From the IMG/VR virus record IMGVR_UViG_2645727905_000011: a stretch of 9,608 bases of DNA. One strand, 5' to 3'. Made by a program: the position numbers and the translations under genes. This DNA comes from a virus (taxonomy: Duplodnaviria > Heunggongvirae > Uroviricota > Caudoviricetes). The notes beneath the pieces were generated by a model, which did no database searches, was not told where the DNA came from, and saw only the letters and a program-made list of their open reading frames with translations. This document shows, piece by piece, positions 4,290 to 6,275 of this stretch. Every line of letters begins with the position of its first letter. Position 1 is the stretch's first letter.

Positions 4290-4997
4290 ATGGATTTGAA
4301 TAAATTCGATGAGCCATTCAGCCCTGAAAATATCGAATGGCGAATACAGCAAAGCGGTAAAACACGCGATGGCAAGGTGTGGGCTATGGTGCTGGCTTAT
4401 GTCACGAACAGGGCAATCATGAAACGCCTGGACGATGTTTGCGGCAAAGCAGGATGGCGCAATGAATACCGCGATATTCCCAACAACGGAGGCGTTGAAT
4501 GCGGCATATCAATCAGGATTGATTCCGAATGGGTAACCAAATGGGATGCTGCTGAAAACACGCAGGTAGAAGCCGTCAAAGGTGGTCGTTCCGGCGCAAT
4601 GAAGCGCGCTGCCGTTCAGTGGGGAATCGGTCGGTATCTGTATAACCTTGAGGAAGGTTTCGCACAAACATCTCTCGATAAAAAGCAGGGGTGGCACAGG
4701 GCAAAACTGAAGGATGGAACAGGATTTTACTGGCTCCCTCCATCGCTGCCGGGATGGGCAATCCCAGCATCAGATAACAAACCATCACCAGAAAATACCA
4801 ACCAGAAATCTCCATCGGTTGACTGCGAACAAATCCTGAAAGACTTCAGCGATTATGCATCAACAGAAACTGACAAGAAAAAACTCATCGAGCGTTATCA
4901 GCGTGACTGGCAATTAATGGCTGGCAACGAGGAGGCGCAGGCTAAATGCGTTCAGGTAATGAACATCAGAGTTAACGAACTAAAACAGGCGGCATAA
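4290..4997 (+). CDS. Rad52/Sak-family single-strand annealing protein
   Basis: 235 aa; ...KRAAVQWGIGRYLY... motif typical of Rad52/Rad22/Sak annealases; GAGGTGA SD; sits at the recombination-module position of the early-left operon. Confidence 0.8.
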   Translation: MDLNKFDEPFSPENIEWRIQQSGKTRDGKVWAMVLAYVTNRAIMKRLDDVCGKAGWRNEYRDIPNNGGVECGISIRIDSEWVTKWDAAENTQVEAVKGGRSGAMKRAAVQWGIGRYLYNLEEGFAQTSLDKKQGWHRAKLKDGTGFYWLPPSLPGWAIPASDNKPSPENTNQKSPSVDCEQILKDFSDYASTETDKKKLIERYQRDWQLMAGNEEAQAKCVQVMNIRVNELKQAA

Positions 4998-5465
4998 ATG
5001 TCTCACTTGGACGGAATTATTAAAAGATTCGAGTCCAGCTACAAAGTTAATGAAACAACAGGTTGCTGGGAGTCTACCTATTCAAAAAACAAAGGAGGAT
5101 ACACAAAATTTGTAGCCTTTGGAGTAACAATGCTTTCTCATCGGGTTGCTTTTGAGCTTTATCACTCCCCCATTCCATCTGGGAAGATGGTTTGCCACAA
5201 ATGCGATAACCCATGCTGCGTTAATCCTGAACATCTCTTTTTAGGTAGCGCGCAAGAAAACATGGACGACAAGATAGCAAAAGGAAGGCATCGTGGAGCC
5301 AAGAAAGGTCATGCTCATCATGGTGCAAAATTAACAGAGTGGCAGGTTATAGAAATTAGGAAAAGACTCTCTGAAAAAGAGAGTCAGTACAAGATAGCAA
5401 AAGACATGGGTGTATCTCAATCAATTATAAGCAACATAAAAACTGGCAAGAGGTGGAGCAAATGA
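4998..5465 (+). CDS. HNH homing-type endonuclease with C-terminal HTH
   Basis: 155 aa; GCWES...GYTKF...[13 protein letters not shown]...[19 protein letters not shown] matches the phage HNH nuclease family; C-terminal helix-turn-helix-like tail; visibly AT-rich compared with flanks. Confidence 0.85.
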
Positions 5466-5968
5466 GTTCTCGCGGGATAAATAAGGTGATTATCCTTGGT
5501 CGGGTAGGACAAGACCCGGAAGTTCGATACTCACCATCAGGAACAGCGTTCGCTAACCTGACAATAGCCACGTCAGAACAATGGCGAGATAAAAATACTG
5601 GCGAGCAAAAGGAATTGACTGAATGGCATCGTGTTGCTGTATCCGGGAAACTGGCTGAGGTCGTGGGGCAGTATGTGAAAAAAGGTGATCAGATTTATTT
5701 CGAGGGAATGCTGAGAACCAGAAAGTGGAAAGACCAGTCAGGGCAAGACCGTTACACAACCGAGGTTCATGTCGGAATTAATGGCGTGATGCAAATGCTT
5801 GGCGGCATTGGCGACAGCAAACAACAAGCAGCCAGCAGGCAATCACAGAAGCCACAGCAGCAATCATCACCAGCACAACACAACGAACCTCCGATGGATT
5901 TTGACGACGATATACCCTTTGCACCAGTAACTCTCCCCTTCCCTCGTCACGCTATTCACGCAATTTAA
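5462..5968 (+). CDS. ssb: Single-stranded DNA-binding protein
   Basis: N-terminus [23 protein letters not shown] closely parallels E. coli SSB; Q/P-rich linker and acidic DFDDDIPF tail. ATG 5462 overlaps the HNH stop (ATGA); track start 5453 is an upstream GTG. Confidence 0.92.
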
Positions 5969-5981
5969 TCAGGAGAAAATC

Positions 5982-6275
5982 ATGCCAGCGCCTCTGTATG
6001 GTGCGGATGACCCGCGCCGCTGTTCCGGCAATTCCGTATCGGAGGTGCTGGATAAATTCAGAAAAAACTACGATCGGATAATGTCGCTACCGCAGGAAAC
6101 GAAAGAGGAAAAGGAATTTCGCCATTGTACATGGCTTGCAGAGAAAGAAGAACGCGAGCGAATTTACCAGACATCAATCCGACCATTCCGCAAAGCCACA
6201 TATACCCACTTCCCTGAAATTGACCCGCGCCTGCGTAATTATCGATCACGCTATGGCGCTATCAGTAATGACTGA
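5982..6275 (+). CDS. Hypothetical 97-aa protein; position and size consistent with an Abc2-like anti-RecBCD factor (unverified)
   Basis: Strong SD (AGGAGA, 5 nt spacer). Lies just downstream of annealase/SSB, where P22-like phages encode Abc2 (also about 97 aa). Family assignment is inference only. Confidence 0.6.

Follow-up and report, generated by a model that had tools for sequence, protein, structure and literature searches.

Which genes make up the recombination (Rec) module that a lambdoid prophage carries in place of lambda Red, how might they work together, and are they still used in their present host? These questions are raised by positions 4290-6275 of a 9,608-nucleotide stretch of Caudoviricetes DNA (IMG/VR record IMGVR_UViG_2645727905_000011; hereafter the window, meaning the whole stretch). 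A first reading of its letters, the original prediction, had described this interval as a Rad52-like annealase with an SSB of its own (a protein that binds single-stranded DNA) and a possible copy of the anti-RecBCD protein Abc2, paired with lambda-type integration genes. Our analysis suggests that the interval is a Rec module of a well-known kind into which a selfish HNH endonuclease gene has inserted, and that it lies in a defective prophage of Escherichia coli, where it is probably silent or expressed by read-through only. We give this overall explanation a probability of about 0.8.

The recombination module

Gene calls were based on Pfam, PHROGs and PDB sequence searches, and comparisons within the host species on a set of 5426 complete E. 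coli genomes. The interval contains the following features.

4290-4997, + strand: single-strand annealing protein, 235 residues (Pfam Rad52_Rad22, PF04098, E=1.1e-25)
4998-5465, + strand: putative free-standing HNH homing endonuclease gene, 155 residues, HNH_3 domain and C-terminal helix-turn-helix (PF13392, E=1.1e-13; PADLOC homing endonuclease, HEase, E=1.9e-7)
5462-5479, + strand: first six codons of ssb in recoded form (ATGAGTTCTCGCGGGATA), presumably the endonuclease target in a version immune to cleavage
5462-5968, + strand: phage SSB with an OB fold, 168 residues from the ATG at 5462 (GTG at 5453 in the list of open reading frames) (PF00436, E=1.8e-36)
5982-6275, + strand: Abc2, anti-RecBCD protein, 97 residues (PF11043, E=4.6e-63; PDB 8B1T, E=1.2e-57)

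The three open reading frames (ORFs) assigned earlier to the annealase, SSB and Abc2 lie at the coordinates given for them, but a fourth gene, the HNH_3 endonuclease at 4998-5465, had been overlooked, and it takes up one quarter of the interval. The description as a non-Red module stands, as no ORF of the operon matched the exo, bet or gam families in Pfam or PHROGs. The interval is a standard lambdoid Rec module of the P22/HK75 class, already known and annotated. On an identical chromosome segment (NZ_CP148378.1), RefSeq annotates all four genes in the same way. From kil to Abc2, DNA identity is 98.6% with HK75 and mEp235 and 96% with Sf6; in all three phages, kil is followed by two small overlapping ORFs and then by annealase, SSB and Abc2, an order that parallels kil-arf-erf-abc1-abc2 of P22.

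The combination of genes is not unusual either, as it is the published HK75/ES18 type (PMC12315714). The survey in question, from 2025, classed the Rec modules of 325 lambdoid phages. Its HK75 type, found in 27 phages, has an anti-RecBCD protein, an SSB and an annealase without nuclease, and its ES18 type, found in 25, has an anti-RecBCD protein, an SSB, a nuclease (HNH nucleases included) and an annealase (PMC12315714). Abc2 and Sak-type recombinases had previously been counted in lambdoid prophages (PMC3784561).

A putatively mobile endonuclease gene between annealase and ssb

The HNH gene, with an intact catalytic His-Me finger (HNH_3), is missing in HK75 and mEp235 despite otherwise identical flanks. 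We compared alleles that share with the window the type of ssb and the junction between annealase and ssb. In those that lack the HNH gene, the annealase stop is directly followed by the ssb start (GCATAA ATGGCAAGCAGAGGCGTA AAT), giving the junction sequence GCATAAATGGCAAGCAGAGGCGTAAATAAG; the corresponding junction of HK75 contains CAGGCGGCATAAATGGCAAGCAGAGGCGTAAATAAGGTG. In carriers, a cassette of 482 bp, running from the HNH start codon to the recoded ssb start ATGAGTTCTCGCGGGATA, stands in place of 18 bp, and the gap between anchors is 503 bp instead of the 39 bp of empty alleles. The two kinds of allele are identical from the next base after the 18-bp stretch, and their flanks show no other fixed difference.

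The association between the gene and the recoded stretch has no exception among these alleles: ATGAGTTCTCGCGGGATA was found in all eight carriers and ATGGCAAGCAGAGGCGTA in all nine empty alleles. About ten substitutions within the codons that follow the ssb ATG are thus perfectly correlated with the presence of the HNH gene. They retain the residues Ser-Arg-Gly while switching codon families, which speaks for import of sequence and not for drift. Several annealase haplotypes, with 0-23 differences relative to the window, bear the cassette and interleave with haplotypes of empty alleles; the cassette is present in 40 of the 5426 E. coli genomes. Among 50,697 phage records there was no close copy of the endonuclease, the best match being to a Vibrio phage at 62% identity; the remaining phage relatives have less than 45% identity and are mostly HNH genes of T7-like phages, several of them annotated as homing endonucleases.

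Precise presence or absence, a recoded ssb start and varied haplotypes together form the classic pattern of a free-standing homing endonuclease. From these sequence patterns we infer that the HNH gene is a selfish element outside the recombination machinery, and that the 18-bp recoded stretch corresponds to its cleavage site. The endonuclease would probably cut phages without its gene at the annealase/ssb junction, and the gene would then be copied in by repair, and the recoded ssb start would protect the copy that carries the gene from cleavage.

A displaced acidic tip in the phage SSB

That the module encodes its own SSB is borne out by an OB-fold match of 124.8 bits to PF00436 and by similarity to E. 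coli SSB (1EQQ, E=2.4e-57), which make it a true bacterial-type SSB. Only residues 1-153 of the phage protein align with it, to residues 1-178 of the E. coli protein. They end with the acidic tip DFDDDIPF (residues 146-153, nucleotides 5897-5920), and an extension of 15 residues follows (nucleotides 5921-5965). Hence, the motif DDDIPF is not at the extreme C-terminus, and its Phe has no free carboxylate. A full-text literature search found no paper on the tail peptide.

The tail's DNA matches, without a single difference, the final 46 bp of gene 26 of Sf6 (positions 3982-4461 of the Sf6 stretch L005), an HNH gene at the 3' end of ssb. In the eight loci with an HNH gene of the Sf6 type, SSB ends with a recoded canonical DDSDIPF followed by the stop codon, and the HNH protein carries the tail. 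In the 19 loci without it, which include two SSB alleles about 67% identical, SSB itself carries the tail. The rule holds in 27 of 27 loci, and the boundaries between locus L049 and Sf6 show a segment of 462 bp in place of 15 bp. By these sequence comparisons, the SSB tail represents a second slot for HNH insertion in its 'empty' state. The occupant of this slot in Sf6 is different from, and unrelated to, the HNH of the window: we detected no similarity between the two proteins, which rules out that they are one element. The tailed SSB is the common form, present in 297 of the 5426 E. coli genomes and in the phages HK75, HZ41, ECP1, CP-1639, mEp235, mEpX2, epsilon34, g341c and NM-3.

Since partners in the host hold SSB by its free terminal Phe, burial of the tip could alter the protein's choice of partners. 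One might go further and propose that two independent homing-endonuclease slots flank ssb and that the 3' slot, by altering SSB, lets a selfish element toggle partner specificity. We regard this proposal as speculative and rather improbable. If it were true, an SSB with a buried tip might no longer recruit host exonucleases, which would favor the phage annealase, and the matching adaptor could be the C-terminal domain common to annealases of the Erf and Rad52 types.

The annealase and its relatives

The annealase matches PF04098 with 90.7 bits (cut-off 20.3), its residues 4-136 covering profile positions 7-153 of 153. Its predicted layout consists of a Rad52/Sak-type core (residues ~1-160), a disordered linker (162-175) and a three-helix C-terminal domain (179-234, about nucleotides 4824-4991). 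The predicted fold, a monomer model, matches RAD52, Mgm101 and Sak and includes the beta-beta-beta-alpha core of Rad52. By Pfam and predicted fold, the protein is of the Rad52/Sak type, as originally predicted, and homology suggests that it anneals single-stranded DNA. A sequence search of PDB chains found no Rad52 relative; its sole match, a WW-domain-like one to Prp40 (E=0.1, residues 129-164, nucleotides 4674-4781), is weak and was not taken as homology. In the model, the same residues 129-164 form a small sheet of three strands attached to the Rad52 core, and W148, P151, P154, W156 and P159 are invariant in 46 homologues.

The C-terminal part of the protein has a different affinity. In a BLASTP comparison with P22 Erf, only the last 79 residues align (63% identity, E=2e-30); window positions 4806-4994 correspond to 6655-6870 of the P22 stretch (L004), with 63-75% identity over the last ~60-80 residues. 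The annealase has no match to the Pfam family ERF and thus lacks an Erf-type N-terminal DNA-binding domain; the C-terminal 79 residues that it has in common with P22 Erf explain why PHROGs and older annotations label it 'Erf-like'. The three-helix domain is kept in enterobacterial relatives, and members of the family elsewhere carry other C-termini. Presumably, it is a partner-binding module that two unrelated-looking annealing cores, Erf and Rad52-type, have in common. We considered whether it might serve as an adaptor to the Abc2-RecBCD complex. This idea is unsupported, as co-occurrence is not strict: HK620 pairs Abc2 with a Sak4 annealase that lacks the domain, and prophages of Erwinia and Superficieibacter have the domain without Abc2.

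Abc2

The 97-residue protein had been proposed as Abc2 from its position and size, and this identification is now firm by sequence. The match to PF11043 (Anti-RecBCD_p2) reaches 209.9 bits against a cut-off of 25, with residues 1-97 covering all 97 profile positions; PHROGs gives phrog_656 'abc2 anti-RecBCD' (E=5e-55); and the alignment with P22 Abc2 (PDB 8B1T) runs from end to end, residues 1-97. The protein is identical to the copy in the P22 genome at 90 of 97 positions, the differences being L32R, I50T, A65S, K76H, I78P, D86N and N97D. In the structure of the RecBCD-Abc2 complex, which contained E. coli RecBCD, the helices that contact RecC are residues 3-66, and Pro68 sits in the active site of host PpiB (PMC9836394). 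Just three of the substitutions (L32R, I50T, A65S) fall within residues 3-66 and Pro68 is retained; by homology, the protein should bind RecC.

Exchange of parts among related loci

The original prediction had read the module as a product of modular exchange, and a census of related loci agrees. We typed the genes upstream of Abc2 in 80 viral contigs of IMG/VR that encode this protein at >=97% identity. Upstream of near-identical Abc2 genes lie two kinds of annealase: 49 contigs have an Erf-type annealase directly followed by Abc2, without SSB, and 23 have a Rad52-type annealase, always with an SSB (27 such loci when the window, HK75, Sf6 and mEp235 are included). The remaining eight could not be typed, having too little upstream sequence or no recognizable annealase core. 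Three kinds of optional nuclease cassettes lie between the core genes, namely the window's HNH between annealase and ssb (seven contigs and the window), the unrelated Sf6-type HNH 3' of ssb (seven contigs and Sf6), and a DnaQ-like exonuclease before Abc2. Whatever the type of annealase upstream, a DUF2737 gene lies 3' of Abc2 in almost all of the 80 loci.

More distant relatives show other combinations. The prophages of Erwinia and Superficieibacter have a Rad52-type annealase without SSB or Abc2, and a Hafnia prophage has one with a canonical SSB and without Abc2. The idea that the Rad52-type core is always paired with an SSB is thus true in 27 of 27 loci with Abc2, but fails in two of the more distant relatives.

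Mechanism and expression

Homology to P22 suggests how the module might work. Abc2 would bind host RecC at the domains that recognize Chi, while host PpiB engages Pro68 of Abc2 (PMC9836394). RecBCD bound by Abc2 would still unwind and resect DNA ends, having lost its response to Chi and the loading of RecA. The phage SSB would then coat the resulting 3' single strands, and the Rad52-type protein would pair the coated strands with complementary DNA. This scheme does without a phage exonuclease, since resection falls to the modified RecBCD. The predicted dependence on host RecBCD fits this picture: the operon encodes Abc2 and no phage 5'-3' exonuclease, a situation analogous to that of P22 (PMC9836394), from which such dependence may be expected.

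Whether this scheme operates in the present host is doubtful. The module had been placed in the early-left operon; its position after kil is indeed that of P22, but pL and N are gone from what is a defective E. coli prophage, located between the yegL/ibs region and mdtA. The prophage lacks cI, cro, N, O, P, terminase and capsid genes, as well as pL, cIII, the immunity region, the replication genes and all head genes, and several of its genes are truncated. Homology to HK75, Sf6 and mEp235 begins exactly at the ATG of kil (3883), and a truncated gene on the opposite strand lies just upstream. A scan of positions 3000-6500 for promoters and terminators gave nothing above shuffled expectation. 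Because pL and N have been lost and no promoter-like site stands out, expression is doubtful despite the intact ORFs, and the module is probably silent or expressed by read-through only. The complete 9.6-kb arrangement is present in two of the 5426 E. coli genomes.

Several points weigh against our overall explanation. The binding of RecC by Abc2, annealing, stimulation by SSB and cleavage by the HNH endonuclease are all drawn from homology or population patterns, and the state of expression in the remnant is presumed from gene loss and a promoter scan. Abc1, required for full activity in P22, is absent. The acidic tip of SSB is not C-terminal, so the protein may behave differently from the SSB of E. 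coli or HK620. Finally, the HNH gene is tightly packed and translationally coupled to ssb, and the case made in the 2025 survey is that HNH genes in tight packing, that of ES18 for example, could be genuine members of Rec modules (PMC12315714).

Alternative explanations

This last point leads to the possibility that the HNH protein is no selfish element but a working member of the module, whose nicks or breaks would initiate annealase-dependent recombination. Its gene starts at the base right after the annealase stop and its own stop overlaps the ssb start (ATGA), its catalytic finger is intact, and the survey counts genes of this kind as likely module members (PMC12315714). Yet, HK75 and mEp235 are viable phages in which the same module works without the gene; alleles that are otherwise identical have the gene or lack it, with the 18-bp recoding confined to carriers; and the cassette sits on differing annealase haplotypes. 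Its absence from sequenced phages in any close copy, its relatives in unrelated T7-like phages, its PADLOC label and the unrelated HNH gene in the second slot of Sf6 also argue for a homing endonuclease, and we consider a role in recombination unlikely. Far less probable still is the suggestion that the annealase belongs to the Erf family, which would make the module simply the erf-abc genes of P22 plus an SSB. It draws on the 'Erf-like' label of phrog_1097, on the annotation of Sf6 gene 28 as similar to P22 Erf and on the BLASTP match to P22 Erf, but this similarity is limited to the last ~79 residues, and loci with a true Erf-type N-terminal domain form a separate class without SSB. For the DNA-binding core, the Rad52_Rad22 match and the predicted RAD52, Mgm101 and Sak fold rule out the Erf family.

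A more serious contender, to which we give somewhat less than an even chance, is that the module is an inert, decaying remnant, idle in this host without promoter or antiterminator, its ORFs being intact because decay is recent. The loss of pL, N, cIII, cI, cro, replication and head genes, the truncation of neighboring genes, the breakpoint that abuts the kil start, the lack of promoter-like sites above chance and the rarity of the whole arrangement are all consistent with this possibility. On the other hand, all ORFs of the module are full length and 98-100% identical to the versions in viable phages, and a consensus scan may miss upstream read-through or cryptic promoters. The inert-remnant hypothesis also concerns expression in this host and leaves the identities of the genes unchanged. 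We favor a Rec module with a selfish HNH gene, probably silent here or expressed by read-through only.

Neighboring genes and the prophage remnant

Around the module, the window contains the following genes.

3883-4035, + strand: kil (RefSeq annotation), the first gene still matching intact phages, with the prophage breakpoint immediately upstream
4032-4202, + strand: small acidic ORF, 56 residues from the ATG at 4032 (phrog_2123, E=3e-39), homologue of HK75 gp33 and Sf6 gene 30
4111-4281, + strand: basic ORF of 56 residues overlapping the previous one (phrog_1723, E=1.2e-33), homologue of Sf6 gene 29
6286-6450, + strand: DUF2737 small protein (RefSeq annotation), after Abc2 in nearly all related loci
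8339-8557, + strand: lambda-type excisionase xis (PF07825, E=1.9e-40)
8535-9608, + strand: lambda-type tyrosine integrase int (PF00589, E=1.1e-39; arm-binding domain PF09003, E=7.2e-29)

The integration genes are of lambda type, as had been predicted: Int has a tyrosine recombinase catalytic domain and the lambda arm-binding domain, and it is accompanied by a lambda-type Xis. Among the two small ORFs between kil and the annealase, the pattern of substitutions in the overlap supports 4111-4281 as the coding frame, with 143 synonymous and 84 nonsynonymous changes in this frame versus 10 and 217 in that of 4032-4202, whose 3' half shows no coding constraint. The N-terminal WSDEEFI of the 4032-4202 product resembles FSDEEFI of P22 Arf (single-comparison BLASTP E=0.005 over a motif of 17 residues), and the ORF has the position of arf between kil and annealase. 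It may encode an analogue of P22 Arf; we see this as a lead only.

Upstream of the module, positions 1165-3930 form a rearranged block. It starts with a truncated ybcO-like nuclease gene, continues on the opposite strand with a ydfO fragment, a PerC-like gene, a Dam methylase, a protein of 108 residues with only the DNA-binding domain of LexA and a second RusA, and ends with fragments of DnaB-like and other genes, which directly adjoin the start of kil. The two RusA genes point toward each other. The window has just two Chi sites, at 2133-2140 (+) and 2489-2496 (-), both in this block; there are none within 3883-9608, a stretch too short for interpretation. Between the Rec module and xis, positions 7015-7713 encode a predicted secreted protein of the LprI family (lysozyme inhibitor; phrog_4675), probably a moron. 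At the far end of the remnant (L001, 12348-14481) lie the type III secretion system effector genes espJ and a member of the nleG family, which suggests an attaching-effacing E. coli background.

Significance

The value of these results as discovery is small, since the module, the identities of its genes and its place in the lambdoid mosaic were already in RefSeq and in published surveys, and the slots for homing endonucleases, the SSB with its tail and the domain shared between annealases amount to small leads that will not surprise a phage genomicist. The selfish-like behavior of the HNH gene nevertheless bears on a caution raised by the 2025 survey, which concerns the inclusion of HNH genes among recombination partners, and the domain common to Rad52-type and Erf annealases is a concrete case of the "shuffling of partner interaction domains", a matter not analysed in the survey. 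Those who use such proteins for recombineering should note the tail, as the SSB of this widespread module has an acidic tip that is not terminal.

Comparison with known systems

The closest system is that of HK75, which has the same annealase, SSB (with the 15-residue tail), Abc2 and small upstream ORFs in the same order. It differs in lacking the 482-bp HNH cassette and in its unrecoded ssb start; HK75 is also intact as a phage and has pL, Nun and cIII upstream. Compared by class, the ES18 type has the same four functional categories, with an HNH-type nuclease packed inside. Genes 28-25 of Sf6 are also very similar, with one difference in the 235 residues of the annealase and the same Abc2 and flanks, but the SSB is a divergent allele (~66% identical) that ends with the canonical DIPF and is followed by the unrelated HNH (gene 26) whose last 14 codons are the SSB tail of the window.

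P22 resembles the window in Abc2 (93% identical), in the early-left position after kil, in the annealase's C-terminal domain and in the small acidic ORF upstream; it differs by an Erf-type annealase core, by the presence of Abc1 and by the lack of an SSB. The hkaM-sak4-ssb-abc2 genes of HK620 have the same operon position and likewise combine an annealase with a cognate SSB and with Abc2; experiments showed that this SSB stimulates the annealase via its C-terminal tail (PMC5928155). There, however, the annealase is a Sak4 with a RecA core, and the SSB is not of the bacterial type.

For the HNH gene, the relevant precedents are the free-standing homing endonucleases of T4-like phages, mobE and Seg (PMC2790892, PMC2988022), which are likewise intergenic genes present or absent between close relatives, with sequence differences confined to the presumed target beside the gene. 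Unlike them, the HNH gene of the window lies in the Rec module of a temperate lambdoid phage, and its cleavage and homing are predicted from sequence patterns. Finally, lambda Red (exo-bet-gam) occupies the same operon position and does the same overall job by other means: lambda brings a 5'-3' exonuclease of its own and uses Gam to block RecBCD, whereas the operon here has no exonuclease gene and RecBCD is presumably re-purposed by Abc2.

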